Positions 4,908 to 33,345 of a stretch of DNA of 64,000 nucleotides are shown here, piece after piece. A model generated the notes under the pieces. That model saw only the letters and a list, made by a program, of their open reading frames with translations, made no database searches and had not been told where the DNA came from. The stretch spans positions 236,468 through 300,467 of the forward strand of contig JAGSHD010000001.1 in NCBI GenBank assembly GCA_023954715.1, in the 5' to 3' direction. Each line of letters begins with the position of its first letter. The stretch's first letter is position 1. A program made the translations under genes and the position numbers. Source of the DNA: Candidatus Cloacimonadota bacterium (GTDB lineage Bacteria; Muiribacteriota; UBA6191).

Positions 4908-5340
4908 TAGCTCACAAAAAAATCCTTATCCTACCGTTGATATTATTATCTACGATCAGGATCAACATCAAATTGTTTTGATTGAAAGGCTAAATGAACC
5001 CTTCGGTTGGGCTCTGCCTGGAGGATTTGTAGATGTAGGAGAAAGCCTTGAACAGGCTTGTGTTCGTGAAGCCAAAGAAGAGACCAATTTAGACTGTTCA
5101 CTTCTGTGCCAACTCTATACTTATTCTGATCCTACTCGTGATAATCGATGCCATACAATATCCACAGTATTTATAGCAACGGGAGTTGGAGAATTAAAAG
5201 CATTAGATGATGCTAAAAGTGCACAATGGTTCTCACTTAGTGATTTACCTTCTCTCGTATTTGACCATAAAAAAATTGTTAATGACTTCAAAACTAACTA
5301 TATTCATGGGACTAAATCCCTTTTTCTTTGCAAGGATTAA
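4888..5340 (+). CDS. NUDIX hydrolase
   Basis: Nudix box [26 protein letters not shown]. Overlaps the upstream gene end by 20 nt, which suggests an operon. Confidence 0.7.
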
Positions 5341-5343
5341 AAA

Positions 5344-14220: not shown

Positions 14221-16902
14221 ATGAAGGTAAATGTAAATAATACTAATTCTAACTTTAAACTTAGTCCCGAAATTCTCTCCAGCACTTTTAGTTTATTTTT
14301 GTTAACTACACTTTTAGTTATAATACACATCTGTTTTGGCCATCTTTTCTTTCACGCCATAGCAGAGCTATTTTCAGTATTTGTAGGAGTACTAATGTTA
14401 GTAGTTATTGCTAACACGAGTACCTTCATAAAAAATAGTTTTTTATTATATTTGTCCATTTCATACTTTTGGCTAGCGATTTTAGACGTTTTTCATACTT
14501 TTACGTTTCCTGGCATGATTTTATCTGATAACACTCATGGACAACTTACCCTGCAATTTTGGGTGTATGCAAGGTTCATTGAAAGTCTTGTGTTATTAAT
14601 TTGTCCAGTCTTTTTAAAAAAACACATCAATGGAAAACTCTATTTTTCAATAAGCTGTATCGTGTGCTGTATCATAGTTTGGGGTTCTTTAAACCTTAAA
14701 AATCCACAGATGATTACAGAAGAAGGCTTAACCCCTTTTAAAATTTATTCAGAATATTTAATCATGTTTATACTATTGCTGGCGCTTTTGAACTTTCTGA
14801 GACTTAGGACAAGTTTTAATCCCTCCGTGTTTTGGTATATTTTCAGTTCACTTTGTTTGACCATTGCATCTGAATACTTTCTTACCCTATATGAAGATGT
14901 CTATCATGTTTCAGTTATCATTGGTCATGTTCTCAAGTTTTTAAGTTTTTCGCTAATTTATCAAGCAGTGGTCAGAACCACGCTCCGAAGTCCATTTGAA
15001 AGCTTAGCTCAAGTCAGTAACAGTCATGATGCGATTCCACATCCATCTATAATTGTTAGTAAAGAATGTAAGATTTCTCAGGTAAACAACTCCGCTTTAC
15101 AATTAATAAAAATATCCCACGATAATATTAACAATGATCACATCCATCAGCACTTCCACCCCAATACTTTTATCGAAAGCCAATGTAGTTTTTGTCAATC
15201 TATCATAACTGGCACTACCCTTAGTCAAGAAACGGTTTATTTTCCTCAATACGATAAATGGTACCTGCTATCCCTAACACCTCTAAAGCTTCTAGATAAA
15301 GTTGAAGGCATGGTGCAAACTCTCACTGATATATCAGAACTCATAGCATCCAATGATAAACTAGAAAAAGAAACCAAAGAAAAAACAAGCGCCATAACCA
15401 AAACTCAAAATTTGCAAAAATATTTAGCCAGTATCTTTGATTCAATACCATCAATGTTAGTTGCAGTAGATACCAAATGTCTAATTACTCAATGGAATTT
15501 AAAAGCGCAAGAAACCATTAACCGTGAATTTAAGTCAGTGCAACACCAGCCTCTTGAAAAAGTTTTTCCTTTTCTTAAAGAAGATATAGATACCATACTA
15601 ACCTGTATAGATAAGAAACAAACTAAAATAATCAATAATCGCCAATGGACCAAATCTACCGATATAAAATATTTTGATATCATAATCTTTCCACTTGTAG
15701 TTGATACAATGGTGGAATCATTAATCATTATTGATGATGTAAGCACTCAGTTCAAATTAAAAGAACAGTTCGATATGGCTAAAAAAATGGAAACCATAGG
15801 GCAACTCAGTGGTGGTATTGCACATGATTTTAACAACATGCTAGGTGCTATTCTAGGGGCTGCTGAGCTTTTATCTTTAAAAAATGATAAGACTGATTCA
15901 GATAGATCTATCTATTTAGAAATTATAATAAATACAGTACAAAAAGCCACTGGTCTAACCTCAAAATTACTTAGCTTTAGTAGAAAGAAACAGCTCCACA
16001 AGACAGTAATTGACTTTCATGAGGTTATCGATGATACACTTCTTATTACTCAATGAACTACGGATCGAATTGTTAATTTTTGCAGTAAACTCAATGCGAC
16101 TAACTCAGTTGTAATTGGAGATTTTTCAGCATTGCAAAACGTCTTACTTAATCTAATTTTAAACGCAAGTTATGCAATCAAAGGCAATGGTGAAATATTA
16201 ATTCAAACCAAAAATGTTTATCTTGATGATAGATATTGTGATGAGTCTACTTTTGATGTTACACCTGGAAACTACTTGGAACTACTGATCAAAGACTCTG
16301 GAGAAGGTATATCACCTGAAAATATTTCTAAAGTGTTTGAACCTTTTTTCACTACCAAACCTCAAGTTGAAGGTACCGGACTAGGTCTATCTTCTGCTTA
16401 TGGTACAATTTTCGAACATCTTGGAGTAATTCAAGTGGATAGCAAATTAGAAGTAGGTACTGAGTTTAGGATTCTTTTAGCATGTACACAAGATACACCC
16501 TTTAAAAAACCAGAGCCTCACGCCTTACAAACTTTTAGCGGACTTATACTACTAGTTGATGATGAAGAAATTATTCGTATGACAGCTACATCTATGCTAG
16601 AAAATATGGGATTTAAAGTTATAAACGCAGCAAACGGCGCAGAAGCTATTGAAATCTACAAAAAACAAAGCCATGAGATCGACCTATGTATACTAGATAT
16701 GATTATGCCTAAGTTAAATGGTAAGGATACATTCTATGAACTTAAAGGCATAAATGCTGATTGCCAAGTTATTTTATCTTCTGGCTATGTAAAAGACGAT
16801 AAACTGAAGACTTTACTCAAAGACGGACTCAGTGGGTTTATTAGTAAACCCTATCGCTACAGTGATCTCAACAAAGTTATATCAGATATTAAAACCACTT
16901 GA
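14221..16902 (+). pseudogene. hybrid sensor histidine kinase (multi-TM sensor + PAS + HisKA + HATPase_c + REC) interrupted by one in-frame TGA at 16054..16056
   Basis: ORFs 14221..16056 and 16132..16902 are in the same frame. The first has ~8 TM helices, PAS-like regions and an H-box (SGGIAHDFNNMLGAIL). Reading through the TGA gives ...LLITQ*TTDRIVNFCSKLNATNSVVIGDFSALQNVLLNLILNASYA (N-box), then DSGEGISPE...GTGLGLS (G-boxes) and a receiver domain (LLVDDEEII...DLCILDMIMP). Confidence 0.6.
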
Positions 16903-17383: not shown

Positions 17384-18850
17384 ATGAACGAAACCAAACA
17401 ACCTAGCCTACTTATCTCCCTGACACCCGTCTGTTTTTTGATAATACTCTTAGTCTTTAATCAGCGTATATTTGAAGGTGATGCCACCTACGGCCCCAAT
17501 CAACTAGCTCTTTTATTATCTGGCATGCTCACTTTAGCCATTGGCTTTTTACACTTGAAGGTTCCGTATAAACAAGTAGAAAAAAATATTATTGAGTCCA
17601 TCAGTTTATCTCTTCAAGCTTGCTTAATACTTTTAGTTGTTGGCTCATTAATAGCAACTTGGATTTTATCTGGTATTGTCCCTACAATGATTTTTTATGG
17701 ATTAAAGATTATTAACCCTAGTTACTTTTTACCAGTTGCTTGTATCTCTTGTGCCATGGTTGCACTATCAACAGGATCGTCTTGGTCAACAACCGGTACC
17801 ATAGGAGTAGCACTCATGGGGATCGGCCAAGCACTCGGGATTCCAGTACCTATGTGTGCTGGAGCTATCATCTCGGGAGCTTATTTCGGAGATAAAATGT
17901 CTCCCTTATCTGACACAACTAATCTTGCTCCTGCTATGGCTGGAACAGATTTGTTTACCCATATACGACACATGTTATATACCTCTGGGCCGGCAATAGT
18001 AATTTCAATCATCGGTTTTTTTATACTTGGAATGTTTTACAAAGGGTCTGGAGCAAATTCAGATAATGTACAAGCTATCCTCAATGTGATTCAAAGTAAT
18101 TACAATATCGGACTTCATCTGTTTATTGTTCCAACTATTTTACTGGTATTGATTGCCAAAAAAATGCCAGCTTTTCCGGCACTTGTACTTGGAGCAGTTT
18201 TAGGTGCATTAGGAGCAATACTATTTCAGTCAGAGCTTTTAGCTAAAATCACGGGGCACGCTTTAGACATGGCAAATGTATATAAAGAGGTCATTAAAGT
18301 AGCTTTTTCTGGATTTAATTATGATTTTTCCAATGCTGTGGTAAACAAACTTTTTAATCGTGGTGGAATGCAAAATATGCTAGACACAGTGTGGCTCATT
18401 ATGATGGCCATGGTCTTTGGGGGAGCATTAGAAGGCACAGGGATGTTACAAAAAATAGCCAGTTCTGTTTTACAATTTGTCTCTGGTGCCGGAAGTTTAA
18501 TTGGAGCTACCTTAGGTACATGTTTATTTTTAAATATGACAGCTAGTGATCAATATTTGGCAATTGTAGTTCCAGGTAAAATGTTCAAAGGGGCTTATGA
18601 AGATATGGGTTTACATCCCAAAAACCTATCAAGAGCACTAGAAGACTCTGGTACTGTAACTTCGGTACTCATCCCATGGAACTCCGGTGGTGCATACAAC
18701 ACTAAAATATTAGGAGTTGGTCCAGATATGATTTATAGCTATCAAATATATTGTTTTTTTAATATATTAAGTCCTTTAATCTCACTCTTTTTAGGATCCA
18801 TGAACATAACCATTGAAAGAATCCACAATGAAAGAAAGTTGTCTCAATAA
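17384..18850 (+). CDS. nhaC: Na+/H+ antiporter NhaC family
   Basis: 488 aa with ~11-12 TM helices. N-terminal pattern (LLISLTPVCFLIILLVF..., GMLTLAIGF) and overall architecture are typical of the NhaC family. Confidence 0.7.
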   Translation: MNETKQPSLLISLTPVCFLIILLVFNQRIFEGDATYGPNQLALLLSGMLTLAIGFLHLKVPYKQVEKNIIESISLSLQACLILLVVGSLIATWILSGIVPTMIFYGLKIINPSYFLPVACISCAMVALSTGSSWSTTGTIGVALMGIGQALGIPVPMCAGAIISGAYFGDKMSPLSDTTNLAPAMAGTDLFTHIRHMLYTSGPAIVISIIGFFILGMFYKGSGANSDNVQAILNVIQSNYNIGLHLFIVPTILLVLIAKKMPAFPALVLGAVLGALGAILFQSELLAKITGHALDMANVYKEVIKVAFSGFNYDFSNAVVNKLFNRGGMQNMLDTVWLIMMAMVFGGALEGTGMLQKIASSVLQFVSGAGSLIGATLGTCLFLNMTASDQYLAIVVPGKMFKGAYEDMGLHPKNLSRALEDSGTVTSVLIPWNSGGAYNTKILGVGPDMIYSYQIYCFFNILSPLISLFLGSMNITIERIHNERKLSQ

Positions 18851-18857
18851 ATACCAA

Positions 18858-19907
18858 TGGATGGTTAGTCCAAAATTTGACCTATGTATATTTCTAGGTC
18901 CGGTATTTTTTGCTACACTTATTAGCCCAATCGCATATGCCTACTATCCAGATAGCATCCCTCTTTGGGCTTTTGTCTCCATTATTATCTTGTTTGACGT
19001 AGCTCACGTATGGGCTACCAATTATAAAGTATATTTTGACTCTGTTGAGATTAAAAGAAGACCATGGTTTTATCTCTTGCCTATACCTATCTTCTTTAGC
19101 CTATCTTTTGTACTTCTTTTATATTCAGAAAACCTCTATTGGACAATTTTGGCTTATGTAGCCGTGTTTCACTTTATCAAGCAACCTTGGGGTTTTGTAT
19201 CCATCTACAAAAGAAAGTTCAAAGAAAACTCAAAATTTGATCTACATTTTGATAAATACATGGTGTGGGCAGCTGGTCTATATCCTGTGTTTATATGGCA
19301 TAGTAGTCCCGCTAGAGTTTTTGATTGGTTTAACGCAGGAGAGAGTTTCATCGTTAAACTGCCCTATCAAATCATCCCCTATTTGATGTTTTTCTATGTG
19401 GCAGGGATCATCGTATATATCAGTCGACAAATCTATTTATATAAAAAAACATCAAAGATTAATTTACCTAAATTGATTTTAATGACTGCCATATATATCA
19501 CTTGGGCCGTAGGAATCTACATGACAAACCCCATTATCTCAGCCGCTTTTCTAAATTTGTTTCATGGAGTGCCATTTTTTGCAATCATCTGGATATACTC
19601 TAAAAACAAATATATAGACCAAGATTCAATCTACCCTAAACTATCTTTTATTTTTCAAAGAAAAACGATTTTTCTCTTTATAGCGATTGTTTTTATTCCG
19701 GCATTGATAGAAGAGTTTTTATGGGATCAGTTAATTTGGCATATTTATTTACCAAACACTAGTTTTATTGATCTTGGCTTTCAGTTAAAAGCACTTGTTA
19801 TTGCATTATTATCACTTCCACAAATTATTCATTATTGGCTTGATATGTTTATTTGGAAAATGGATGAAAACAAAAATCCAGATCTTAAAAAATATCTTTT
19901 GATTTAA
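18858..19907 (+). CDS. polytopic integral membrane protein, unknown function
   Basis: ~350 aa with >=8 hydrophobic helices. The start is uncertain (ORF track 18813; internal Met at 18858). Confidence 0.4.
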   Translation, partial: WMVSPKFDLCIFLGPVFFATLISPIAYAYYPDSIPLWAFVSIIILFDVAHVWATNYKVYFDSVEIKRRPWFYLLPIPIFFSLSFVLLLYSENLYWTILAYVAVFHFIKQPWGFVSIYKRKFKENSKFDLHFDKYMVWAAGLYPVFIWHSSPARVFDWFNAGESFIVKLPYQIIPYLMFFYVAGIIVYISRQIYLYKKTSKINLPKLILMTAIYITWAVGIYMTNPIISAAFLNLFHGVPFFAIIWIYSKNKYIDQDSIYPKLSFIFQRKTIFLFIAIVFIPALIEEFLWDQLIWHIYLPNTSFIDLGFQLKALVIALLSLPQIIHYWLDMFIWKMDENKNPDLKKYLLI

Positions 19908-20131
19908 TCCTCAGTTAAAAAAATTGTAATTATTCTAAAAAGATTACGACTAAGCACTAAAATTAAAATTACCCCACTTACTTCACCTTAAAAACTCAAA
20001 AGCTATATCTTTAAGATTTACATTTGTTTTTTCCGTCAATATCTAAATTAAATTATTTGTTAAATAACTTTGGCATTTTACATATTCATCATTATACTTA
20101 TAGTGGACTAATTTTTTTATTTTGGAGAACC

Positions 20132-21163
20132 ATGACACGACTATACACTCTTTTCTTATTCACCCTACTAATTCTAGTCAATCAATCTATTGCTGAGTCT
20201 GACATTTTCACCAGTTTTGATAATCGATATCAAGAAATCACCAATGAACCTGTTCAAAAAAATGTACAAATCCCAACAAGTAATGGAATAGCCGTCTTAG
20301 ATTTGAAATTGGCCCTTCTTTTACATCCCGCAATGAAAGATTATAACTTTACTATTCATAGTTTCATCAAACCCATACCTAAAAATTTAAATGTACCAAT
20401 CAACTTCTACCTAAAAAATAGGATCAAAGAGTCTAGTGAAATGGTACTGAAATCCAAAAAAACATATAAAGATTTACGACTTAAACAACTCGAAGTACAG
20501 CAAAAAATCTCTTCATTGATATATAATAAGTCCAGTAATATCCGTAAGATTATGTCCAGTAATCGAGGTGACACAGAAAGCCAACTAGAAAAGTTTCGTA
20601 GTGACTATCAAAAAAAGCTCAAAAGATACCAATTACAAAAGTTAAGTATCACCAAAGACATTGTAAATACTTTTGATACTTCTTATGGTATCCATTACAT
20701 GACCCGAACCGACCGTGATCGACTATTGAAAAAGATAGAGAAAGAGGTCTTACTTGCTGCTAAAAAAGTACTTAATTCTCAAAACTTATCTGTACTTCTA
20801 AATGGTAACTATCTAGAAGATGTAGCTCCTCAAACAATCTCCAAATTAGCATGGGTAGATAAAAATTTTACTGGGGTGAATGCTTTAAGTTTTTACTTTC
20901 AACGCCAACATCAAGTTATAGATGACGAAATACAATCGTACTCAGAACAGATCGGAGCTGACTTGTTTGATCCTTATTACAAAAACCTAAATAAAATCCC
21001 TGCGATTTTCGGTAAAAATTATAATGATCAATTTATTTTACTTGGTGGAAAAAACATAACAAAAGCAACCCTTCAAGTTTTATATCAAAAATATAACAAA
21101 TTAAATCTAATCAAAGACATTTTAAGTTTCGTTCAAAAAATAAAAGAGAATCAACATGAATAA
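20132..21163 (+). CDS. exported coiled-coil protein, possibly Skp/OmpH-like periplasmic chaperone; translationally coupled to the giant gene
   Basis: The ATG at 20132 follows a GGAG RBS. Signal peptide MTRLYTLFLFTLLILVNQSIA. Skp-like N-terminal block NGIAVLDLKLALLLHPAMK. Long K/Q/E-rich coiled coil. The stop TAA overlaps the next ATG (ATGAATAA). Confidence 0.5.
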   Translation: MTRLYTLFLFTLLILVNQSIAESDIFTSFDNRYQEITNEPVQKNVQIPTSNGIAVLDLKLALLLHPAMKDYNFTIHSFIKPIPKNLNVPINFYLKNRIKESSEMVLKSKKTYKDLRLKQLEVQQKISSLIYNKSSNIRKIMSSNRGDTESQLEKFRSDYQKKLKRYQLQKLSITKDIVNTFDTSYGIHYMTRTDRDRLLKKIEKEVLLAAKKVLNSQNLSVLLNGNYLEDVAPQTISKLAWVDKNFTGVNALSFYFQRQHQVIDDEIQSYSEQIGADLFDPYYKNLNKIPAIFGKNYNDQFILLGGKNITKATLQVLYQKYNKLNLIKDILSFVQKIKENQHE

Positions 21164-24100
21164 ACATATCCTATTTATCACTGTATTTTTTTATCTCGCA
21201 ATACAATGTAGTTATGCAGTCATTGGCAATAAAGACGATGCCATCAACCAAATTAAAATCAGAAACGGTGACGTTTATGTTTTAGTAAATCCCAACCTTG
21301 CTTCAGGCGTACCTACCTCGAGTGCTTATGGACTTTGGAGATTTTATCGTGGGAATGACTATCCTGATGATACAAAATATAAACGACAAAAAATGTCTAA
21401 GTTTCCTGTACCAAACAACACCAATAAATATTCTGGTTTAACAGTAGATAAGTTTGCTAAGGTTTACGTCTTTAAAGAAATTCCAGACGCGGGTCAGACT
21501 TCCTTGGTTACTCTTGGTAACACTCACCCTATTTTAGAAACTGGCACTTTTCCTGGTTTTGTAGATACAGATAATTCAAAGATGAAAGTAGGAACCGATT
21601 GCGCATCAGAAAGAGCTGTAAAAGGATCCCCTCCTGGTTGGGTTTATGTCATCACAGATGACGGAAATGAAGGTTGGGTAAAGTACTACGATACAACAAC
21701 TCATGGTAGCCTAGGAATGGTGGAAACACTCACTGAAAAACCAGGAGTTAAAAATGCTATTGATGGGCTAGGCGGAACGATTTTACCTCCTGCTTTTAAA
21801 TCTTCGGCTGCAAACTTTTATTATACAGCTCACGGAGGCTTTTGGACGGGTAGTGCATCAAACCCTACCCACGGAATAGAAATCGCTGGTGCTACTGGTA
21901 GCCCAGGAAGACCTGCTCCAAACCCAACCTTTTGTGGAAATCCTGGTAAAGCCAATGGTGATCCAAGATATCCTGAATGGGGATATAATAAATGGCCTGG
22001 ATCTCCTTGTGGATCTAAATTATATCCAAGTCTTGGAGCCTTTTTTATGACTCCTGCTAAGTCTACTCATGCCGCTGATGGTGGTAAGGGGACTAATGTT
22101 GCAGCCGTTCGAGTTTGTTCTGTAAGTAAAGAAGTACGTAAGTTATTCTTTGATAGATATATCGAAGGTACAGATCACGATATTTTAAAAGACTCTAAAC
22201 CTTTTTTGGGCTTGACCAATGATGATCTTTTTTCTGGTCCACCAAGTGGAGTTGGGGACGGTAAACTAATATCAGGGACAATCCCTGTTTCTGTATCAGT
22301 AGGTTCACTCACTCGATATGCCCGATTCAATCATTGTGGAGATATGTGTGGAGCACCAGGTCAAAGTTCACCTCCTATTCCAACAACTCCAGGTAAAGCA
22401 GTTGGAGCTATGTCATCCTTTGGTACTAAAGATAGTGAACAGCGAAAATACGTTTTAAAATCATCTAGCTCTGGTGGAAACCCCGAGACTTGGGTGATGC
22501 AAATTGATGGAAATGGTTCTACAGGTACCTTAGGTCGTACTCCATTAGTAAAAAGAGACGGTGGTGTTTTTGATTTTAATGGAGCTACTGGTATAGACTT
22601 TGACCCAGAAACAAGTGCACTTGGATCTAGATTTGCAGCCAGCGAGTATATTGGTTTTAGAGATACTGGGTCAGGAATTGGTCACATTTCAACAATTCAA
22701 GTTTCTAAAAGAGATGATACAAAGGATTGGGTATATACTTCTAACCCAGCTAACCCTCAATTTTTCAGAGTATCTGAAAGCTTTTGGGGAACAGGCGGAA
22801 TCCAGTGGATCTTAAAAAACCCAAATAATGCTACTATCGAGTGGTTACAAGTCAACCACGAAACCGGTATTGAAATTTCTAAAGATAGTATGGATGTTAA
22901 CAATGCCAATCCTATTGTAGCTTTTGGGGTGGATGGTGACGGTAAGGTTTATTGGCTAGAAAAATCTTTCCAAGAAAGTCTTGTCCAACTTACAGACACT
23001 CTAGGTGGAACCTCTCCTACATGGGAGAAAATCTCTAATTCTGGTAAATTAGTAGCTCCTACTGTTACTCCTGTGTTAACTCCGAGTGCCGGCGAATCTG
23101 GTGTACCCATTTTAGTAAAAATCTCAAGAGATAGTGGGCTTGGTCTCTTTAAATCAGCCATCGGTGTAACTACTCCATTTTTTATTGGTACCTTACCAAC
23201 TGGTGGCGTAATATGTGAGCGAACTTTCATCTCTGTTTCTGGTGATCCTACTAAAGCAGGATATTGGTCTGAAGCTGCGTGGAGTGGTCAATTTTGTGAT
23301 ACACCAGACAACACTTTAGCTGTTGATGTAGAAATGGCTGTAATCAACGTGGCTAACCCTCCATTATCTGAAGGGGATTTTGTTTTAGATATTGTTGATG
23401 TACCTGACATTTTAGAGGGACAAAAAGTAACTTTTTACATGGAAAACCCTCCTAGATTTAATGGGCAAAAAGCTCAACTAGCCGGAGCAGGAAGCAACAC
23501 TGCTTTTGCTCCATACAATTGCGCTCCGGATGCTGTACTACGATCTTTCTCAGAAAGTCCAGGTGCCTTTGATGGTTATGTTCGTATGGTATCTAACGAA
23601 AATGCTACAGGGTCAAGACCTGTATTAGACGAGTTAAAGCTTTTAACTGAAGTGCGAAACACTGGTGTTCAAACAAAATCAGGTACTGCTTGGACTTATG
23701 AAGACTCTGATGTAGTCATTGGACAAAACCTTCCTGCTTTTGTTTATGAAGATATTCCAAGCCCTCTGATCTCAAGCTCTGGTCCTTGTGCTGGAGGATT
23801 TCCTGTAAAAAAACTGGGAGTTAATAATAAAACACTTAGATATAGATGGATGGTAAAAGCTTTGACTCCTCCCATGAGTAAAAAAACAAATCATCCAAAG
23901 TTAACCGAGCTTGGTTTACCTAACCAATGTGATAACCCAACAACTGACCCAGCTTATGTTGAGCCAAAGTTAAAAGAAATTCCTGGTCTTATTTTCGCCA
24001 GTTGTTTTGAGGATGTCCCTCTTCACTCTGATCCTGCAATGGCAGCACTTGATCAAACAGAAGTCAAATCTCCAGATATCGAGTTTCCAGATCCTGGATC

Positions 24101-27100
24101 TTATGAAGTAATCTTAGAGTTAGTTGGATTAAGATGGGATGCAGATGGGCTAACCTTTGCGGATGACTCCACTGGTGTATCTTATGAAGTTACAAAAGCT
24201 GTAGCTAGCTACATTGTAAATGTTCATCCAATGCAAGCCCAGCTAGATGGTTCTGTAAGTGATGTACACATCATGAACAACTACGGATCATATACCTCTC
24301 CTGACTCTACTTGGGATGGTACTCCTTTAGTTGAAAATAGCGTTACTGGTAATGCAGCCCACCTTGAAGTAGTAGAAGGGTCTCCTTTTCCTATGGTTGC
24401 AGAAGTTACCATTGATTTTTTTAGAGCTCCAGATAAAGAGTATGCGAGTGACTCAACGGACAAAACCATGAAAAAGTATGATGGTGTTGGAGTCTGGGAT
24501 TACACTTATCCAGGAACAGTTCATGACAAAACAATGGTCCATCCTATGAACTTCGCTAGTGGCCCTACTGGATTACCTGGTGAAGTTGGAGAAGTAGACC
24601 AAGATGCCGGAAATGATGCCACAGCAAATTATGATACAAGTCCCGTACTTTCTCAAGCAGGAACAGTTCTTACCCCTATCTTTTATGACCCCAATGATAT
24701 ATCTCTATCTACTAAATTAAACCATATTCAAGGCACCTATAGTTTAGATCGTTACTACTCCCATGGTGTAGGAGGAGCAACACCTAACGGCCTAGAAAAT
24801 ACTTATGAGTCTATGTTTGATTGGTATGAAATAAAATACTATTGGTTTTACAGATACAAAGACCCAGTGTCCGGTCAAAAAACTGCTCCAAAATTATTTA
24901 GAAAAGGAAACTTATCTGAAATATGGGCAATACATAATTTAGCATCAGTAGCTGGTAAAGACTCCATCATGCCAAATGATATCCAAGATTCATCCAACTT
25001 CTGGAACGATGGTGAGTTGATTAAAGTCCTTGACCCAGATCGTCGTACCTATAAAGTTCGTATTCCGCTGTTTAAAAACCAGTTACTACTGGATGATGGC
25101 TCTCCTGTTGAAGACCGAGTTATGGATTGGACTAAATTAGGTAATCCAGACTTTTCTGCTCTTACTCCTGCCAATGTAGTAGCAGGTGGCGTCAATCGAG
25201 TGGATGCAAACTTAGGTTTATATGATTTTAAAGTTCCAAGTGAGCCTAGCTCTATCGAGTTTAGCTTTTATATTGACTACCCTATTGTTAAATGGTCAAA
25301 GCGAAACCAGCAAGGACATACTTTAGATGCTGATCATGTAAACGAAACCGTTTCTTCTGATATAGCAGCTGAACAAGGTACAACCGACAAAGCAACACTT
25401 TTAGCTAATATGGACCTAGATGCAACTTATTATGATTTGGTTCCTTGGGGACCACGTTCTGATGCTCTTGGTGGAAACAACTCTGATATGAACGATTCTA
25501 TCCGATCTTATAACAGTAATGATCCTAGACTTTTGGCAAACTCTGTATCTGGTTGGGGAAACATCGGTGCATATCGTACCAAAGGTGGACTCTACACAGC
25601 TACCGAAGCTAGCAGTGGAGGAATGAATGCTGATGGTAGCTACTCCAAAGATGATGGCACCGAAAACGATCATTGGTTTGATGTAATCGTATTGGATAAT
25701 ACCCCTCCTTCCATATCTTATGTAAACAATCTTGGAGATGAACCTTCAATGACAGGAGCTTTCTCCACATTTAGTTTTGAATCAAAAGTCGGAGGTATGT
25801 GGGATAGTAATGATGGAGTTGTAATTTCTGTAATGGATAACAACCCCTACCAGCACTGGTTAAACTACAAAGCATTTGATGCTGCTTCTCCAGAGATTGA
25901 GCCTTATAGTCCATATCTTCAACAATTTTACTATGATCTAGGACCAGATCCTAGAAACCTTCTCGGTTTAGGAGCAAAAGATAATGGCTCAACAGCACAA
26001 CCATGTGTTTGGGGGTATTCCATCTCTAATCCCCTATCTCCACTTAAAGCAGAAGCTGGCAATGGAGCTGGGTGGCTTAATCCTTTTGGACAAGAAGAAA
26101 ATCACTTTAACACCAATATCGTGACGCACCAGCAACCAGGATGTAGTTATCAGCACCCATTTACTTCTATGGCCTTTAGTGATCAAAGCTTCGTACGGCA
26201 TGATACTGGTACATTTAATCTTGCCAATATTTTAGATAGTGGTACAGTAAAGTTTACTCCACCAGCTACTCTTTTAAGTGGATCAATCTACGATGAAGGA
26301 GTGGTCGCTCCCGTAAATAATAGCTATTACTCAATACAATTTAAAACTAAAGTTGATAATGTATCTGGAATCCCTATCCCAACCGAGTATGGTGCTGAAG
26401 CGGGAGGAGAAATCAAGTTTATCGACAATCCTGGTAATTATCAAGCCATGGATGGCAGCTCAGTAAATATATCATTTCAAACTACTTCGTTTTTTGCTGG
26501 AAACTTTGATGCTACAGGAGACACGGGAGTTTTAACACCTCAAGAGACCTTTAGAGATCAAGCATATCGTACAGCTTTTTATTGGGTGCCAAAAGATGCA
26601 CTTATATCTCCATATTTCTTTGGTGCTAACTCTGGAGGACAAGAAACATATAAGGCCTATGCTAGAGCTTATGATATCTCTAGAAAACATGGTAGCTTAG
26701 CTCATCAAGGTTTAGCACGTGAAGACGTGGGTACTTCTTTAGGCACACTCGATCAAAGACCAAACTTAAAGGCTACTGAAATTGGGGACTATACTATCCA
26801 TGACAATAGAGAACCCAACATTAAAGTTACATTTTTCGATTACAAAATGAACTCATTATTCAAATTTATCATTTTAAATGATGCTAGCCACCATCATCAA
26901 CAGTCACAAGCTGGACTATTTAGTAAACACAGTATTTTACTTAAATCAAAAGATCCTCGAGATAGCTATTATTTAAAAGCTGGAGATCAAGCACAAGCAA
27001 CGATTTCATCTGGTAAATTAACAGTTACTAGTGACTATGATCTAGCAAATCCAAGCTCTGTTACTGGTCTTGCCGCTTATGGGACAGATGCTTCTGGTTT

Positions 27101-27476
27101 GGGTAACTTTCTTGTAAAGATTCCTGAAGATGTACGGTTTAGAATTAAAGCAGAAGCTGTAGACAATGTGACTTTACCGGCCAATCTCAATATCACTGTC
27201 GAAAGTGATATGACTGGATTTAGCCTTAATACTTCTCAAGGTGCTTTAGTACCTACAGAAGATCCCTTTGAAGCAAAAGTTACTACGGTTAGAGATTATC
27301 AATTTCAAGGGTTTACATCTAACTTTTGGCAGTACCCTAGACCTGGTAGATATGATGTAATTAAAATCACTGTTTCAGATGAGCAAGGTAATACTCGTAT
27401 GATTCGATTTCCAATTGAAATTATGCCACAAGACCTACACTTTAGAAAAATCGGTGATAACTCAAGAATTAAATAG
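21156..27476 (+). CDS. giant exported protein (2106 aa), unknown function; Gly/Thr/Ser/Asp/Pro/Trp-rich, non-repetitive
   Basis: 6.3-kb uninterrupted ORF in a stop-rich AT genome. Signal peptide MNKHILFITVFFYLAIQCSYA. No obvious internal tandem repeats or known catalytic motifs. Confidence 0.75.
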   Translation: MNKHILFITVFFYLAIQCSYAVIGNKDDAINQIKIRNGDVYVLVNPNLASGVPTSSAYGLWRFYRGNDYPDDTKYKRQKMSKFPVPNNTNKYSGLTVDKFAKVYVFKEIPDAGQTSLVTLGNTHPILETGTFPGFVDTDNSKMKVGTDCASERAVKGSPPGWVYVITDDGNEGWVKYYDTTTHGSLGMVETLTEKPGVKNAIDGLGGTILPPAFKSSAANFYYTAHGGFWTGSASNPTHGIEIAGATGSPGRPAPNPTFCGNPGKANGDPRYPEWGYNKWPGSPCGSKLYPSLGAFFMTPAKSTHAADGGKGTNVAAVRVCSVSKEVRKLFFDRYIEGTDHDILKDSKPFLGLTNDDLFSGPPSGVGDGKLISGTIPVSVSVGSLTRYARFNHCGDMCGAPGQSSPPIPTTPGKAVGAMSSFGTKDSEQRKYVLKSSSSGGNPETWVMQIDGNGSTGTLGRTPLVKRDGGVFDFNGATGIDFDPETSALGSRFAASEYIGFRDTGSGIGHISTIQVSKRDDTKDWVYTSNPANPQFFRVSESFWGTGGIQWILKNPNNATIEWLQVNHETGIEISKDSMDVNNANPIVAFGVDGDGKVYWLEKSFQESLVQLTDTLGGTSPTWEKISNSGKLVAPTVTPVLTPSAGESGVPILVKISRDSGLGLFKSAIGVTTPFFIGTLPTGGVICERTFISVSGDPTKAGYWSEAAWSGQFCDTPDNTLAVDVEMAVINVANPPLSEGDFVLDIVDVPDILEGQKVTFYMENPPRFNGQKAQLAGAGSNTAFAPYNCAPDAVLRSFSESPGAFDGYVRMVSNENATGSRPVLDELKLLTEVRNTGVQTKSGTAWTYEDSDVVIGQNLPAFVYEDIPSPLISSSGPCAGGFPVKKLGVNNKTLRYRWMVKALTPPMSKKTNHPKLTELGLPNQCDNPTTDPAYVEPKLKEIPGLIFASCFEDVPLHSDPAMAALDQTEVKSPDIEFPDPGSYEVILELVGLRWDADGLTFADDSTGVSYEVTKAVASYIVNVHPMQAQLDGSVSDVHIMNNYGSYTSPDSTWDGTPLVENSVTGNAAHLEVVEGSPFPMVAEVTIDFFRAPDKEYASDSTDKTMKKYDGVGVWDYTYPGTVHDKTMVHPMNFASGPTGLPGEVGEVDQDAGNDATANYDTSPVLSQAGTVLTPIFYDPNDISLSTKLNHIQGTYSLDRYYSHGVGGATPNGLENTYESMFDWYEIKYYWFYRYKDPVSGQKTAPKLFRKGNLSEIWAIHNLASVAGKDSIMPNDIQDSSNFWNDGELIKVLDPDRRTYKVRIPLFKNQLLLDDGSPVEDRVMDWTKLGNPDFSALTPANVVAGGVNRVDANLGLYDFKVPSEPSSIEFSFYIDYPIVKWSKRNQQGHTLDADHVNETVSSDIAAEQGTTDKATLLANMDLDATYYDLVPWGPRSDALGGNNSDMNDSIRSYNSNDPRLLANSVSGWGNIGAYRTKGGLYTATEASSGGMNADGSYSKDDGTENDHWFDVIVLDNTPPSISYVNNLGDEPSMTGAFSTFSFESKVGGMWDSNDGVVISVMDNNPYQHWLNYKAFDAASPEIEPYSPYLQQFYYDLGPDPRNLLGLGAKDNGSTAQPCVWGYSISNPLSPLKAEAGNGAGWLNPFGQEENHFNTNIVTHQQPGCSYQHPFTSMAFSDQSFVRHDTGTFNLANILDSGTVKFTPPATLLSGSIYDEGVVAPVNNSYYSIQFKTKVDNVSGIPIPTEYGAEAGGEIKFIDNPGNYQAMDGSSVNISFQTTSFFAGNFDATGDTGVLTPQETFRDQAYRTAFYWVPKDALISPYFFGANSGGQETYKAYARAYDISRKHGSLAHQGLAREDVGTSLGTLDQRPNLKATEIGDYTIHDNREPNIKVTFFDYKMNSLFKFIILNDASHHHQQSQAGLFSKHSILLKSKDPRDSYYLKAGDQAQATISSGKLTVTSDYDLANPSSVTGLAAYGTDASGLGNFLVKIPEDVRFRIKAEAVDNVTLPANLNITVESDMTGFSLNTSQGALVPTEDPFEAKVTTVRDYQFQGFTSNFWQYPRPGRYDVIKITVSDEQGNTRMIRFPIEIMPQDLHFRKIGDNSRIK

Positions 27477-28439: not shown

Positions 28440-29216
28440 CTACTCTTTGACGTAGATCATAATTTTATTGTGAAGTTTTAATTTTTTCGCTGCATAATCA
28501 ATTATAATAAAAGCACAAGAACATATTTTCATTAAAAAGTCATCGTGATAATCCTTGTTTAATAACATAGAAAATAATATCACTTGCCCTTTGTTAGTCT
28601 CAACTTTCAACCTATCATTTTGAATCTGTATAACAAGATCTTTACTCTGGAAATTTGGCGTAGATTGTAGTTCATAAGACATTCCTAAGTCATTAAACAT
28701 ACTAATTAAAAGAGAAGCTTGTGTGTAATTTGCTAGGACTTGTTTTTTATTGTCCGTTTCAAGAAAACGATCAACCCATTTATTTGTGCAATAATCCGAA
28801 CAAATCAAGATAAAAAAGTCACACAAAACAAACTGATCCTCATGACTAAATTCATCAAAAAAATGTAGCTCTAACATATTAAGAGCATTTTTGGGATTAA
28901 CAACTTTTCTGCTATGTCCGCCGATCCAATGAAAATATGCGGTAGGATCTACAACACTTTCTTTTTTTAGTGGATTCCAACAAGTTACCATGTCGTTGCG
29001 GTTTTTCCAGTTACAAAAGATGCTTAATCTCGAGTCACTTATATCAATAGCTGGTATATAATCTTGTTGAACAACAATCACATTATAGTTATATGAGAAG
29101 TTTATTAGTCCCCGTGTTACCAGAATATCCTTGATTTGCTCAAATCGATCTTCATTCAAAATATGTCGTTTTCCTTTTAAAGTTAACATTACAATACCCA
29201 AAAAAAAAGAGCCCAA
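28440..29216 (-). CDS. hypothetical protein (probable start at internal Met, complement 29187..29189)
   Basis: Clean ORF convergent with the radical SAM gene, with stop codons abutting (28439/28440). No recognised domain. Confidence 0.4.
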   Translation of the reverse strand: MGSFFLGIVMLTLKGKRHILNEDRFEQIKDILVTRGLINFSYNYNVIVVQQDYIPAIDISDSRLSIFCNWKNRNDMVTCWNPLKKESVVDPTAYFHWIGGHSRKVVNPKNALNMLELHFFDEFSHEDQFVLCDFFILICSDYCTNKWVDRFLETDNKKQVLANYTQASLLISMFNDLGMSYELQSTPNFQSKDLVIQIQNDRLKVETNKGQVILFSMLLNKDYHDDFLMKICSCAFIIIDYAAKKLKLHNKIMIYVKE

Positions 29217-29236
29217 TCCGAAAGACGAGCTCTTCT
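29201..29236 (-). terminator. putative rho-independent terminator for the cNMP-binding gene
   Basis: On the minus strand: AAGAGC-(16-nt loop)-GCTCTT followed by T9 (plus strand: a9 gagc...gctctt). Confidence 0.45.
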
Positions 29237-29250
29237 AGTAACTTATATAG

Positions 29251-30198
29251 TTATACTCTGCGACGCTTATATTTAGCCATAGCTTCAGCTTCTTCTCGGT
29301 GTCTAGCATTTTCAATAGCACTAGATACTTGAGTAGAAACACCACTAACTAAGTTGATATCAGCATCAGAAAAAGGGACTTCTTTACGGGCAAGGATTAT
29401 TGCACCGTATACTTTTCCATTTTTCATCAGTGGTACGGACATTAATACAGACATGTCCTCACTGATCGTATCTTTTGAAGCATCGGTTTCATCAAATAAA
29501 TCTTTATAAGATATGATTGTTTGATCTTCTTCTAGTTTAGATATCAAATCTAGACCTAAAGTAAAGTCAATGGAGTTTCCATCATTGCTGATTACTTCTT
29601 CGTAAGAGCCAGATAAATCATTATAAACAATTAAACTACCATGAGTTACGCCTAAATTATTACAAAGACGGTTCATGATTTGATCGGATAAGGATACGAG
29701 AGATGCAGATTGAGAAATGATTTTCCCTGTATCGTATAAAACAACTAGCTCCATATTCGTTTTACGTAAACGACCAGATATAACATTGATAACAGAAAAC
29801 AACAATCTTGAAGCTACTTCTACGTCTGTCAAAACCAACTCTTGAAAAACTTCTCGTGAAATTTTAATCAAATAGCAATCATCTTGAGCAATAACAGCCG
29901 CAGATCTAGGAGCATTATCAAATAATGACATTTCTCCAAAGTATTCGTGGGAGTGTAAAGTTGCTAGAGGTTTAGCACGCTTGGTTTCTTCATCAATTAT
30001 TTTTGCAATCATAACTGATCCAGAAACTACAATATATAAAGCCCCGCCATCATCATCACCTTCATTGATAATGACATCTCCTTCAACAAAATGCTCAATC
30101 TGAGCACGATTCATCAAAGAAGCTAATTTATGAGGAAACTCTTCAAAGGCATGAAAAACAGGTATTTTTAAAACATCTCTTAGGGTGATTTGCATCAT
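29251..30198 (-). CDS. cyclic-nucleotide-binding domain protein (cNMP-binding + C-terminal GAF-like region)
   Basis: cNMP-binding core FGEMSLFDNAPRSAAVIA with the preceding beta-roll. A GGAG RBS overlaps the stop of pilT (TAATGGAGAAATG). Confidence 0.65.
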   Translation of the reverse strand: MMQITLRDVLKIPVFHAFEEFPHKLASLMNRAQIEHFVEGDVIINEGDDDGGALYIVVSGSVMIAKIIDEETKRAKPLATLHSHEYFGEMSLFDNAPRSAAVIAQDDCYLIKISREVFQELVLTDVEVASRLLFSVINVISGRLRKTNMELVVLYDTGKIISQSASLVSLSDQIMNRLCNNLGVTHGSLIVYNDLSGSYEEVISNDGNSIDFTLGLDLISKLEEDQTIISYKDLFDETDASKDTISEDMSVLMSVPLMKNGKVYGAIILARKEVPFSDADINLVSGVSTQVSSAIENARHREEAEAMAKYKRRRV

Positions 30199-30209
30199 TT
30201 CTCCATTAA

Positions 30210-31517
30210 TTAAATATTAGGTTTAATATTTTCACGATATATAGCTTTAGCGATAGCATCTTCATAAGTAATGATATTTTGATGATATAAACTATTTAAA
30301 CAAGCATCCATAGAAATCATTCCTAGTTTAGTCCCTGTTTGAATCGCTGAATTTATTTGATAAGTTTTACCTTCCCGAATCAAGTTGGCAATAGCACTTG
30401 TTACAAGTAAAATCTCTCTAGCTGCCACTCGGCCACCACCAATTTTAGGGATCAATTGCTGAGAAATAATCCCCCGTAAAGTCGTTGAGAGTTGAGCTCG
30501 AATCTGATCTTGCTGGAAAGAAGGAAAAACATCTACAATTCTATCTACAGTTTGTGCCGCATCTTGTGTATGTAATGTTGATAAAACCATGTGACCCGTC
30601 TCAGCAGCTGATATAGCAGCACTAATGGTCTCTAAATCTCTCATCTCTCCCACTAAAATTGTATCTGGATCTTGTCTCAAAACATATCTTAGAGCTACAG
30701 TAAAAGACTCTGTATCAGTTTTTAACTCTCGTTGATCAACGATACAGTTTTTATGTTTGTGCACGTACTCAATAGGGTCTTCAACGGTAATAATATGACC
30801 ATGTTTCTTTTCGTTAATCAAATCAACCATCGCCGCCAAAGTTGAGGATTTACCTGAACCAGTTGGACCTGTAACCAAAACTAATCCTCTAGGCAATAAA
30901 GCTAAAGATTCGATCGGCTTACTTAAACCAAGCTCTTTAAAAGTAGGGATGCTCTCTGTAATTGCTCTAAATGCAGCACTTACACATCTTTTTTGACGAT
31001 AAACATTAACTCTGTATCTAGCAATACCAGGTACAGATAAAGATAAATCTAACTCATGGGTTGCTTCGTACTCTGCTATTTGGTCCTGCCGCAAGATGGA
31101 ATAAACCATCTTTTTAACCATATCACTGTTTAAAATTGGGAACTTATCTCTTTCAATCTTACCGTTAACTCTAAACATTGGAGGTAAACCAACTGAAAAG
31201 ATAATATCAGAACTTCCTCTGTCTTTACTTCTTGCAAGACATTTAAACATTTCTTCTTGAGAGGTTCCGAACCCTTGTGGGCTCTTAGATACTTCTTGTT
31301 GAGGGTTGCCTGAACTTTGAGAAGATACTGCTTGTGGTGGAGCACTTGTTGGTGCTGCAGCTTGAGGCCGTTGAGTTTGCTGAGGTCTTTGAGCTTGTGG
31401 TGCTGCTGTACCGGTCGGTCTGGCAACTCTTTGCTCTGGACGAGCCTGTCTTTGCTGATTTTGCTCTGCATTTGGATTTGGTTTACTTTTTCCGAGTCTG
31501 GGCAAACTGATAGCCAT
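30210..31517 (-). CDS. pilT: type IV pilus retraction ATPase PilT family, with ~95-aa Gln/Pro/Ala-rich N-terminal extension
   Basis: Walker A VLVTGPTGSGKSST. GEMRD, HTQDA and other PilT/PilU signatures. The preferred start is the ATG at complement(31515..31517), preceded by AAGGAGAGAGAT. The extension sequence is ...QRQARPEQRVARPTGTAAPQAQRPQQTQRPQAAAPTSAPPQAVSSQ.... Confidence 0.85.
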   Translation of the reverse strand: MAISLPRLGKSKPNPNAEQNQQRQARPEQRVARPTGTAAPQAQRPQQTQRPQAAAPTSAPPQAVSSQSSGNPQQEVSKSPQGFGTSQEEMFKCLARSKDRGSSDIIFSVGLPPMFRVNGKIERDKFPILNSDMVKKMVYSILRQDQIAEYEATHELDLSLSVPGIARYRVNVYRQKRCVSAAFRAITESIPTFKELGLSKPIESLALLPRGLVLVTGPTGSGKSSTLAAMVDLINEKKHGHIITVEDPIEYVHKHKNCIVDQRELKTDTESFTVALRYVLRQDPDTILVGEMRDLETISAAISAAETGHMVLSTLHTQDAAQTVDRIVDVFPSFQQDQIRAQLSTTLRGIISQQLIPKIGGGRVAAREILLVTSAIANLIREGKTYQINSAIQTGTKLGMISMDACLNSLYHQNIITYEDAIAKAIYRENIKPNI

Positions 31518-31785
31518 ATCTCTCTCCTTTTGATTCATTATCGGTCTTACCTAAACACACATTTAGCAGATACAGAAACTAAACTTGCTAAATTCTGGAA
31601 TCAAAAATCTTGTGATAAAGATAAGTAGTTCAAAATGGTATCAAATTAATCCATAAAAAGAAATTCGATTGACGGCTATTAAGTGCTTTGTTACACTTCC
31701 CGATTCAAAAAATATAACAATATAAATAATAAATAAATAATTTAACAACAATTAAAACATTCACTTGAATGTCTGGAGCTAACAA

Positions 31786-33345
31786 ATGAAAAACTTATTA
31801 AAAGGTTTAGCAGTATCAGCTTGTATCGCAGGTCTATCCACAAATATATACGCAGGAACATTTTCTGACGTTCCTCAAGGACATTGGTCTTACAAAGCTG
31901 TTGAAGAAGTATCAGCTAAAGGTATCATCAAAGGATACAAAGAAAAATTTGGTGGAGAACGAAACGTTTCTCGATACGAAATGGCATTAATCGTTTCTAG
32001 ATTATTGAATGCAGTATCAAAGGGAGCAACAGTTCCTGCTGGAGCAAACGCTGACTTAGTAGAGTTAGTTCAAGAGTTTGGTAACGAACTTGCTTTAATG
32101 GGCGCTAAAGTTGATGTAGTTGCTGCAAAAGCTGACAAAAACGAAAAAAGAATCGAAGCACTTGAGTCTTCATCATCAAATATTGGTGTTGGTGGAATCA
32201 AAATGAAAGGTTACATGGGCTTAAGATGGCAAGGTCATTTTGCTGATGGAATGTCAGATGTAGTAAGCAGTGATCCTCAAGCTAAAATTGATTTAGGTTT
32301 CTCTGGAAAGTTAAACGATAAATCTAACTGGGGTATCAACTTCGGAACTGGATCTACTCAAAAGCCTAACTCATCATGGACTACATTTGGTGGATCATCT
32401 GCTTTTGGTAAGACTGATTTCAACCTAACTAAATTCTTTTTTGATTACCAAGCAACAGATGATTTAAAATTTGTAGTTGGAAAGCAAGATAATCCTTTCA
32501 AAAACACTGAACTTGTATTTGATGCAGACGTTAAGCCTGCTGGTATCAGTGAAAGCTACAAAATCAATGATAAGTGGTCTGTATCTGCTGGACAATACTT
32601 TGTAAAAGAAGGTTATGCTAATGGTACTGGTGGAACTGGTGTTGCTGCAGCTGCTGGAGCAAAACTAGGACAAGAAGACGTTGGTTTATTTGCTCACGGT
32701 GTTAGCTTTAACGATAAGCGTGGAAACAGCGCATGGACAGTTAATGCTAGTAACTTAAACTTTACTGGAGAGCAATACTTACATCCAGCTCAAACCGGTG
32801 GTGAAGGCGTAATTAATAGAATCGCTTCTGCAACAGGAACTACTTTTGCTGATTCTAACTCTGCAAGATCTGGTAACTATTATAACCAAGATGCAACAGG
32901 TGCTGCTCATACTCGAAATGCAACTACTGCAAACAGAGCAAATAGATTATTATCTGATTTCAACTTGTTCAACATCTTCATCGGATGGGAAAATCAAGCT
33001 AATGCGAATGACCCATGGGGTGTTAAGTTGGATTACGTTGTAAACAACTCAGCATGGAATGGCGATGATTCTGGACTTTGGTTCGAAATCTACAGAGGTC
33101 GATTATCTCAAAAAGGTGACGTAAGATACGGTTACCAGTACAAGCGTGTTGAAGCTGACGCTACTCTTGCTTGGATGAACGAAGATCAACTAGGAACAAA
33201 CGTTAAAGGTTCTGCAGTTTATGTACAAAATAGACTACGTGACAACATTGACTGGGTTACAACATATTTCTTGTTTGAGCCAGTACATGGTGTAAGCACA
33301 GATAAGTCTGGATTCTTACGAACTGGATTTGCTTTAACATTCTAA
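31786..33345 (+). CDS. SLH-domain outer-membrane protein (N-terminal SLH + coiled-coil linker + C-terminal beta-barrel; OmpM/Slp-like)
   Basis: Signal peptide. SLH motif FSDVPQGHWSYKAVEEVSAKGIIKGY...VSRYEMALIVSRLL. Coiled-coil ADKNEKRIEALESS. Gly/aromatic-rich amphipathic strands ending ...LRTGFALTF (OMP beta-signal). Confidence 0.7.
   Translation: MKNLLKGLAVSACIAGLSTNIYAGTFSDVPQGHWSYKAVEEVSAKGIIKGYKEKFGGERNVSRYEMALIVSRLLNAVSKGATVPAGANADLVELVQEFGNELALMGAKVDVVAAKADKNEKRIEALESSSSNIGVGGIKMKGYMGLRWQGHFADGMSDVVSSDPQAKIDLGFSGKLNDKSNWGINFGTGSTQKPNSSWTTFGGSSAFGKTDFNLTKFFFDYQATDDLKFVVGKQDNPFKNTELVFDADVKPAGISESYKINDKWSVSAGQYFVKEGYANGTGGTGVAAAAGAKLGQEDVGLFAHGVSFNDKRGNSAWTVNASNLNFTGEQYLHPAQTGGEGVINRIASATGTTFADSNSARSGNYYNQDATGAAHTRNATTANRANRLLSDFNLFNIFIGWENQANANDPWGVKLDYVVNNSAWNGDDSGLWFEIYRGRLSQKGDVRYGYQYKRVEADATLAWMNEDQLGTNVKGSAVYVQNRLRDNIDWVTTYFLFEPVHGVSTDKSGFLRTGFALTF

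Follow-up and report, generated by a model that had tools for sequence, protein, structure and literature searches.

PilT is a hexameric ATPase and the retraction motor of type IVa pili. The second-messenger inputs known for such pili act mostly on the extension ATPase, in the form of cyclic di-GMP (c-di-GMP), or on transcription, in the form of cyclic AMP (cAMP) and CRP/Vfr. At the extension ATPase, c-di-GMP acts through the N-terminal MshEN domain of MshE/PilB and through the FimX-PilZ-PilB relay; at the level of transcription, the cAMP receptor proteins Vfr of Pseudomonas and SyCRP1 of Synechocystis control pilus genes. Here, we describe a pilT locus in a 64,000-nucleotide (nt) stretch of contig JAGSHD010000001.1 (GenBank assembly GCA_023954715.1; the whole stretch is called the window), in which a PilT with an N-terminal extension is encoded directly upstream of a protein with a cyclic nucleotide monophosphate (cNMP)-binding domain and a GAF domain (called the partner).

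The core of the window's PilT aligns end to end with the PilTs of Pseudomonas aeruginosa (PDB 3JVU), Geobacter (PilT4, 6OJX), and Aquifex (2EWV), with E values of 1e-110 to 1e-100. Unlike solved and canonical PilTs, which start at the position of Met90 of the window's protein, the PilTs of its clade carry an additional 59 to 102 residues, and the clade pilT gene is always followed by the cNMP-GAF gene. The partner is like CRP, Vfr, and SyCRP1 in its cNMP fold, its G-E...R-S-A cassette, its long C-helix, and its apparent target organelle, but where these have the helix-turn-helix it has a GAF domain followed by a charged helix, suggesting that it would exert control through protein contacts rather than through DNA. 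In concept, the locus also resembles MshE/PilB and FimX-PilZ-PilB, where a nucleotide second messenger reaches a pilus ATPase via an N-terminal appendage or an adaptor; here, however, the ATPase is that of retraction, the sensor has a cAMP/cGMP-type domain, and the appendage is disordered and contains no domain. Full-text literature searches returned no description of an N-terminal or disordered extension of PilT and none of a cNMP/GAF or cAMP-binding protein paired with PilT.

A further likeness concerns Bd1971 of Bdellovibrio (cNMP plus EAL; PDB 6HQ4), whose cNMP-binding domain is similar to that of the partner (E ~1e-9). The similarity covers this one domain only, and Bd1971 differs from the partner in that its output is enzymatic (EAL) and it is not linked to pilT. 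An earlier first-pass annotation of the window, made from the letters of the sequence, had raised the idea of a Bdellovibrio-like, predatory organism. We found no support for this: the identical proteins come from a metagenome-assembled genome (MAG) labeled Candidatus Cloacimonadota by NCBI, and the generic domain similarity to Bd1971 is the sole connection to Bdellovibrio.

The pilT gene encodes a predicted retraction ATPase with 89 additional N-terminal residues

The minus-strand open reading frame (ORF) 30210..31538 has a length of 442 amino acids (aa) and offers two ATG candidates, at 31538 and 31517. The second ATG (31517..31515) is preceded by aaaaGGAGagagat, which contains a GGAG (31527..31524) at a spacing of 6 nt, and among 5.8 billion proteins searched, a 100% identical one of 435 aa (P0001) starts there, with MAISLPR. 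The protein scores 459 bits with TIGR01420 (pilT_fam; cutoff, 319.1), over residues 90 to 428 and profile positions 2 to 341 of 343, and Pfam T2SSE over residues 202 to 366. Among solved structures, it is closest to P. aeruginosa PilT (3JVU, E = 1e-110), followed by Geobacter PilT4 and Aquifex PilT, and with 373 bits to PilT 3JVU versus 290 bits to PilU 9N32 it is nearer to PilT than to PilU. Since residue 5 of 3JVU aligns to residue 92, the canonical PilT start corresponds to the internal Met90 (31250..31248), with 89 residues upstream of it.

The core contains a Walker A motif (GPTGSGKS), a Walker B motif (ILVGEMRD), a His box (TGHMVLSTLHT), and AIANLIREGK, which is a PilT signature helix of the AIRNLIRE type. 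These motifs are invariant columns in an alignment of 47 sequences, and the first three are so in one of 13 sequences as well. Judged by these sequence features, the product is a bona fide PilT-family ATPase with intact catalytic motifs and the predicted retraction motor of type IVa pili. Residues 1 to 89 have no Pfam or NCBIfam match and form no folded N-terminal domain of the PilB/MshE type; neither MshEN nor T2SSE_N of Pfam matches the long-form PilT.

Comparison among relatives shows translation of the extension

The NCBI record for the window's own genome (MCO4780888.1) is annotated with 346 aa, starting at the internal Met, and 346-aa calls are also found for four relatives (P0002, P0003, and P0012 from NCBI and P0038 from JGI), with 59 to 94 residues dropped, whereas the gene callers behind Logan, ENA, and some JGI entries give the long form. 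If the short calls were right, translation would begin at 31250..31248, and the GC-rich stretch ahead of it would be an untranslated leader whose frame stays open through low complexity. Consistent with such a start, Met90 does not vary in the alignment of 13 sequences and falls where canonical PilTs begin, and within the window the low-complexity stretch opens other frames as well (Table 1).

The relatives argue for the upstream start. About 15 of them, with 61 to 75% identity and 404 to 448 aa, were found in the search of 5.8 billion proteins, and at least 15 relatives in all (61 to 95% identity), namely those called at full length, start with MAI[ST]LPR, with MVIRLPR as the single exception. 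The DNA of relatives called at 346 aa still holds the extension in frame (L001 and L089). A Shine-Dalgarno (SD) sequence (GGAG, AGGA, or GAGGA) lies 5 to 11 nt ahead of the MAI ATG in all eight independent clade loci, whereas the Met90 ATG has no usably spaced SD in any of them, the Q-E-E codons abutting it without a spacer. Across these eight loci, the extension frame contains no stop in 617 codons, while each of the other five frames collects 9 to 30, and it has stayed free of stops despite many insertions and deletions. The terminal heptapeptide is kept while its codons change: motif codons differ synonymously between loci (GCT/GCA/GCC/GCG, TTG/TTA/CTA/CTT, and AGA/CGA/CGT/AGG), suggesting that the peptide, rather than an RNA element, is under selection.

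Between the window's pilT and that of its closest relative, there are 5 synonymous and 2 nonsynonymous differences in the first 12 codons; 14 synonymous differences, 38 nonsynonymous differences, and 8 gap codons in the linker that follows; and 144 synonymous and 20 nonsynonymous differences in the core. This is the signature of a translated disordered spacer between two constrained motifs. A start at the internal Met is very unlikely in the light of these data; we conclude that the long form, with translation from 31517, is the real one and that the NCBI start lies too far downstream.

On these points, the first-pass annotation was borne out. It had recognized a PilT whose frame stays open upstream of the core, an SD of near-consensus sequence before the ATG at 31517, and a poor site at the internal Met, and it had proposed that the extension is translated, with a homologue alignment as the check; the relatives do carry the extension.

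The extension consists of two conserved motifs and a hypervariable linker

The extension comprises a terminal heptapeptide, which is a candidate short docking motif, a linker rich in Gln, Pro, Ala, and Ser, and a junction motif (clade consensus, [FY]GT[AS]Q[EQ]EM) that ends at the internal Met (Table 1). Across the clade, the linker measures 44 to 88 aa and consists to ~60% of P/A/S/Q/T, with 4 to 14% hydrophobic residues; neither its length nor its sequence is kept. The AlphaFold2 model, computed from the 47-sequence alignment, has a predicted local distance difference test (pLDDT) score of 40 to 49 over residues 1 to 80 and of >85 from residue 81, and its ordered part starts at the junction (pLDDT of 85; helix 86 to 99). 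Disorder of the extension, which the first-pass annotation had suggested, is thus reflected in the model. The compositionally odd, GC-rich stretch that it had pointed out is also there: GC content peaks at 0.54 (150-nt windows, 31300-31449) versus ~0.30 to 0.37 nearby, with 0.49 for the extension and 0.36 for the core. The peak recurs in every relative and is a consequence of the amino acid composition of the linker. Of the ORFs in other frames, it had named 31130..31471 (-) and 31317..31628 (+); both exist, as does a third (Table 1).

In the same model, DSSP assigned an isolated beta-bridge between residues 4 and 85 (at about 31508..31506 and 31265..31263), with low confidence; this is a hint of a possible pairing between the conserved motifs at the two ends of the extension. 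Residues 1 to 6 of the model fall outside the segments with a pLDDT of <50.

The partner is a predicted cNMP receptor built like CRP

The partner ORF (29251..30198, minus strand) matches Pfam cNMP_binding (71.5 bits versus a cutoff of 27.5), GAF_2 (40.1 versus 28.6), and GAF (39.3 versus 22.4), and its 314-aa product is identical to NCBI MCO4780887.1. Because orthologues and the NCBI record start with MQITL, the second ATG, at 30195 and 14 nt past the pilT stop, is the most likely start. The first-pass annotation was right in calling a cNMP-binding protein here, but it overlooked the GAF domain. It also placed the ribosome-binding site across the pilT stop, which is not the case: the stop TAA is at 30212..30210, the partner's GGAG (30204..30201) lies 5 nt beyond it, and the TAA quoted there is a second one that is out of frame. 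Its view of the two genes as a tightly spaced operon held, with gaps of -1 to 19 nt between pilT and the partner gene across eight loci. Past the partner stop, a hairpin leads into a U9 run, suggesting that the operon consists of these two genes; this hairpin was found by RNA folding and had been missed by a scan for consensus terminators.

FGEMSL of the phosphate-binding cassette is invariant across the partner family and the cassette Arg nearly so; PRSA is present in the window's partner and in 17 of 17 sequences of one partner alignment. The residues of the cNMP-binding barrel that contact ribose and phosphate are intact, and the RSA cassette resembles that of CRP; the predicted ligand is cAMP or cGMP. 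A 38-residue helix, which is probably a dimerization helix, lies between the cNMP and GAF domains. The AlphaFold2 model (mean pLDDT of 81) contains an alpha/beta domain at residues 166 to 276 (pLDDT of ~80 to 90), in which a beta-sheet is flanked by helices as a GAF fold, and a helix at residues 277 to 313. The charged C-terminal tail (ENA.xREEEA..Y.RRR) is kept in distant homologues. A Foldseek comparison with the PDB gave cAMP receptor proteins as the best matches (E ~1e-12), over the N-terminal half only and with TMq values of ≤0.42, and no solved structure with the two-domain cNMP-GAF arrangement.

Pfam searches found no DNA-binding or catalytic domain in the partner, and any output would therefore have to run via protein contacts. 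The CRP equivalog NF008732 matches partially, scoring 63.9 bits where the cutoff is 266. Given this score and the missing helix-turn-helix domain, we classify the partner as a predicted cNMP receptor that is built like CRP and belongs outside the CRP/FNR family.

The partner gene directly follows pilT in several phylum-level lineages

All full-length partner homologues with readable upstream DNA were located directly behind a PilT-family gene, on the basis of about eight independent clade loci and nine loci outside the clade. Within the clade, pilT is followed by the partner gene in L001-L006 and L087-L092, including L087, where the upstream neighbors differ. The set outside the clade comprises L010 (Desantisbacteria), L060 (Elusimicrobia), L094, L095, L097, L098, L171, L172, and L173. 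In the Candidatus Desantisbacteria locus, a pilT gene of 350 aa without the extension is abutted by the partner gene; the Elusimicrobia MAG has the order pilT-pilT2-partner, again with a PilT lacking the extension; and in L094 the order is pilB-pilT-partner. Extension-less PilTs accompany the partner in eight of these loci (L010, L060, L094, L095, L097, L098, L171, and L173).

As a control, 80 loci from GTDB genomes were obtained by a genome scan with a PilT alignment and the generic patterns HIIT[IV]EDP and ILVGEMRD, with no clade member among the matches listed. Among these, 76 of 80 had no cNMP-binding neighbor at all, and a full-length partner homologue was present in two (L010 and L060). 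A metagenome scan with the partner as the query gave at least nine full-length (cNMP plus GAF) matches, and those with readable upstream DNA (L091, L092, L094, L095, L097, and L098) were all behind a PilT-family gene; PilT was nearby in none of the 71 cNMP-only matches listed. The more distant members L171, L172, and L173, likewise behind pilT, were recovered by searching 1.84 billion representatives with a profile; this search returned 111,458 proteins at E ≤ 0.001, mostly giant multi-GAF proteins, and at least ~25 full-length single-stretch clusters.

The cNMP-GAF family thus appears, from these gene neighborhoods, to be a dedicated pilT neighbor across several phylum-level lineages, in every informative locus found. 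Extension and partner are evolutionarily separable by the same comparison, with the extension being clade specific; as the partner also accompanies extension-less PilTs, the pairing is older than the extension and independent of it.

Some variants were seen along the way. L173 encodes a 466-aa partner variant (4001..5401) in which the GAF domain is preceded by two cNMP-binding domains, directly behind an extension-less pilT. On the high-GC metagenome contig L096 (1580..2985), a 201-aa PilT-like ORF, which has an internal deletion in the N-domain and ends soon past Walker B, runs into the beginning of a cNMP-GAF ORF in another frame; decay of the locus, a frameshift in a fused gene, or faulty assembly could each account for this. 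P0008 and P0020-P0036 are PilT-family proteins of 720 to 770 aa that score as two tandem PilT modules in a single chain, and those with a name are labeled Lentisphaeria or Lentisphaerae. P0099 (425 aa) is a PilT with an apparent, unrelated N-terminal extension rich in Ala and Pro, given its start site as annotated, and without the MAI[ST]LPR tip. Similar apparent extensions were matched by tblastn to query residues 29 to 56 in L046, L066, L028, L047, L086, L082, L014, and L019; these other extended PilT lineages are mostly high-GC Actinomycetota and Proteobacteria, and the MAI[ST]LPR tip is not among them.

Table 1. Coordinates of the features of the pilT-partner locus within the window
Feature	Position	Strand	Basis or remark
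pilT coding sequence, long form	30210..31517	-	435 aa plus stop, start MAISLPR; TIGR01420; P0001 identical
Shine-Dalgarno sequence AAGGAG	31524..31529	-	Sequence reading; 6 nt between GGAG and ATG 31517
N-terminal heptapeptide MAISLPR (clade, MAI[ST]LPR), candidate short docking motif	31497..31517	-	M1, I3, L5, P6, and R7 invariant in 13 sequences
Hypervariable Q/P/A/S-rich disordered linker, residues 8-82	31272..31496	-	pLDDT, composition, GC peak
Junction motif FGTSQEEM, residues 83-90, ending at internal Met	31248..31271	-	G84, T85, Q87, E89, and M90 invariant
Canonical PilT core, residues 91-435	30210..31247	-	3JVU alignment; pLDDT >85
cNMP-GAF partner gene, 314 aa	29251..30195	-	Alternative ATG 30198; GGAG 30201..30204
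CRP/PKA-type cNMP-binding domain, residues 35-124	29827..30096	-	PF00027; phosphate-binding cassette FGEMSL...PRSA
GAF domain, residues 165-296, followed by C-terminal helix (ENA.xREEEA...RRR)	29311..29706	-	PF13185 and PF01590
Terminator-like hairpin plus U9 run	29200..29236	-	RNA fold, -15.4 kcal/mol, z = -2.3 versus shuffles
AT-rich divergent intergenic region, pilT/SLH-porin	31539..31785	.	GC 0.23-0.29
Shadow ORFs from the low-complexity stretch (span 31130..31628)	31130..31471; 31317..31628; 31334..31510	-; +; +	ORF list

A possible mechanism and its alternatives

The conserved adjacency strongly suggests a functional link between the cyclic-nucleotide sensor and PilT. We consider it probable that the two genes form an operon for an extended PilT and a cNMP-GAF sensor that acts on it, with the extension serving as a tether. 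The sensor would bind the PilT core and, upon binding of cAMP or cGMP, would switch ATPase activity, the state of the hexamer, or recruitment; the GAF domain might take a second ligand. The outcome would be a post-translational control of pilus retraction by a second messenger. The extension would be a tether, flexible and specific to the clade, that docks PilT to another component through its terminal motif, for which a basal-body protein of the pilus or the junction motif of PilT itself are candidates; this docking is the weakest step of the proposed mechanism.

Several points weigh against this reading. The neighboring ORFs scanned (~12.2 to 21.2 kb and 27.5 to 36.7 kb of the window) contain no further pilus gene, and those scanned around the operon include no adenylate or guanylate cyclase. 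The cassette Arg is replaced by His (PHSA) in L010 and by Tyr (PYSA) in L088 and L092, and some members of the partner family may have lost or altered cNMP binding. The linker evolves almost neutrally in sequence, so that its function, if any, would lie in its length and composition, and a minor short isoform from Met90 is possible. Adjacency speaks for functional linkage and not for a mechanism, and direct gating of PilT by a cNMP, like the cNMP-linked control of retraction that the first-pass annotation had read into the locus, is something we infer from gene order. The whole basis for the tether is the motif-linker-motif anatomy together with the low-confidence bridge between residues 4 and 85 of the AlphaFold2 model.

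Other arrangements of the same parts can be envisaged. The N-terminal motif might dock onto the co-encoded cNMP-GAF protein, which would then hold or release the tethered tip so that extension and partner work as one device. Extension and partner do co-occur in every clade locus, and the partner has no other output domain, but it is linked just as tightly to the eight extension-less PilTs listed above, which makes the sensor a less likely docking partner for the tip and suggests an ancestral interaction surface on the PilT core instead. We regard this one-device arrangement as unlikely, and the extension could still provide a secondary contact for the partner. Alternatively, the tip might mimic the cytoplasmic N terminus of PilN, dock into the groove of PilM, and so tether the motor to the basal body. 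A comparable contact is the one that GspE/PilB-type ATPases make with GspL/PilM-like proteins through their N1 domain, and the PilN N terminus (...INLLP.R), which binds PilM, resembles the tip; this likeness and the placement of the motif at the end of a long, flexible linker are all that speaks for PilN mimicry. The likeness is short (I-x-L-P-R), a motif search of the window found neither pilM nor pilN, and a literature search on the PilN INLLP motif gave nothing relevant, so that we think mimicry of PilN quite improbable.

It is also conceivable that the cNMP-GAF protein has no business with PilT and is an independent cyclic-nucleotide receptor, acting as a sink or on other targets, that merely rides in the pilT operon. 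The contact between PilT and the partner is a predicted one, and cNMP and GAF are generic signaling modules, as the size of the profile search result illustrates. Against this stand the adjacency itself, which is kept where the PilTs are only ~50 to 55% identical and the flanking genes wholly different, and the tight or overlapping spacing; hitchhiking would not be expected to persist in this way, and we give an independent receptor only a small chance. Hardly credible is an anti-phage module akin to Pycsar/CBASS, with the partner as a cNMP effector triggered by a cyclic nucleotide. PycTIR/effector models of PADLOC match the partner (E = 3.5e-12, residues 26 to 148), but the match is limited to the generic cNMP-binding domain, the partner has no TIR or transmembrane effector domain, no cyclase neighbors it among the ORFs scanned near the operon, and its constant companion is a housekeeping-type PilT, once in a pilB-pilT cluster. 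Its domain content effectively refutes the defense reading, and we rejected it.

Genes surrounding the operon

Upstream of pilT, the AT-rich intergenic region presumably holds promoters. A weak promoter-like site was found at 31748..31719 (-), and such sites are no commoner there than in shuffled sequence. The divergent gene beyond it (31786..33345, +) encodes an OmpM-like porin with an N-terminal SLH domain and Porin_5, and its position is kept in most clade loci, with the exception of L087. This type of outer-membrane tether seems unexpected for Cloacimonadota, and the taxonomic label may deserve checking; the window ORFs scanned include no marker gene suited to phylogenetic placement.

Just past the terminator is a 258-aa ORF (28440..29216, -) whose first possible start is TTG, with an ATG (MLTLKG...) a few codons in, and for which Pfam, NCBIfam, and PADLOC gave no match. 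A 2,106-aa protein with a signal-like N terminus and no Pfam match is encoded at 21156..27476 (+); the ORFs 18813..19907 and 20024..21163 upstream of it are also without a family match. Farther upstream, a sensor kinase appears to be split over two plus-strand ORFs, 14221..16056 (MASE3, PAS, and HisKA) and 16132..16902 (HATPase_c and receiver), which might be either a genuine split hybrid kinase or the result of a frameshift.

Implications for the control of pilus retraction

By its sequence, the core is an ordinary PilT; the clade-specific extension and the pilT-tied cNMP-GAF family are what appears to be new. In at least four NCBI records, the annotation cuts off 59 to 94 residues, and the N-terminal motif is invisible in those protein sets. 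To our knowledge, the recruitment and switching of retraction ATPases at the type IV pilus machine are still poorly understood. The motif-linker-motif extension offers a handle on what PilT docks to, and the sensor gene, seen across several deep lineages exclusively right behind pilT, is a concrete and testable candidate for direct control of retraction by cyclic nucleotides. More tentatively, and with some doubt on our side, the cNMP-GAF proteins might be an undescribed, multi-phylum family of PilT-binding receptors that gate retraction without transcription, to which the clade's PilT would have added a tethered motif for positioning the motor. If this is true, they would represent an unrecognized post-translational layer of control that helps to decide whether a pilus is extended or retracted.

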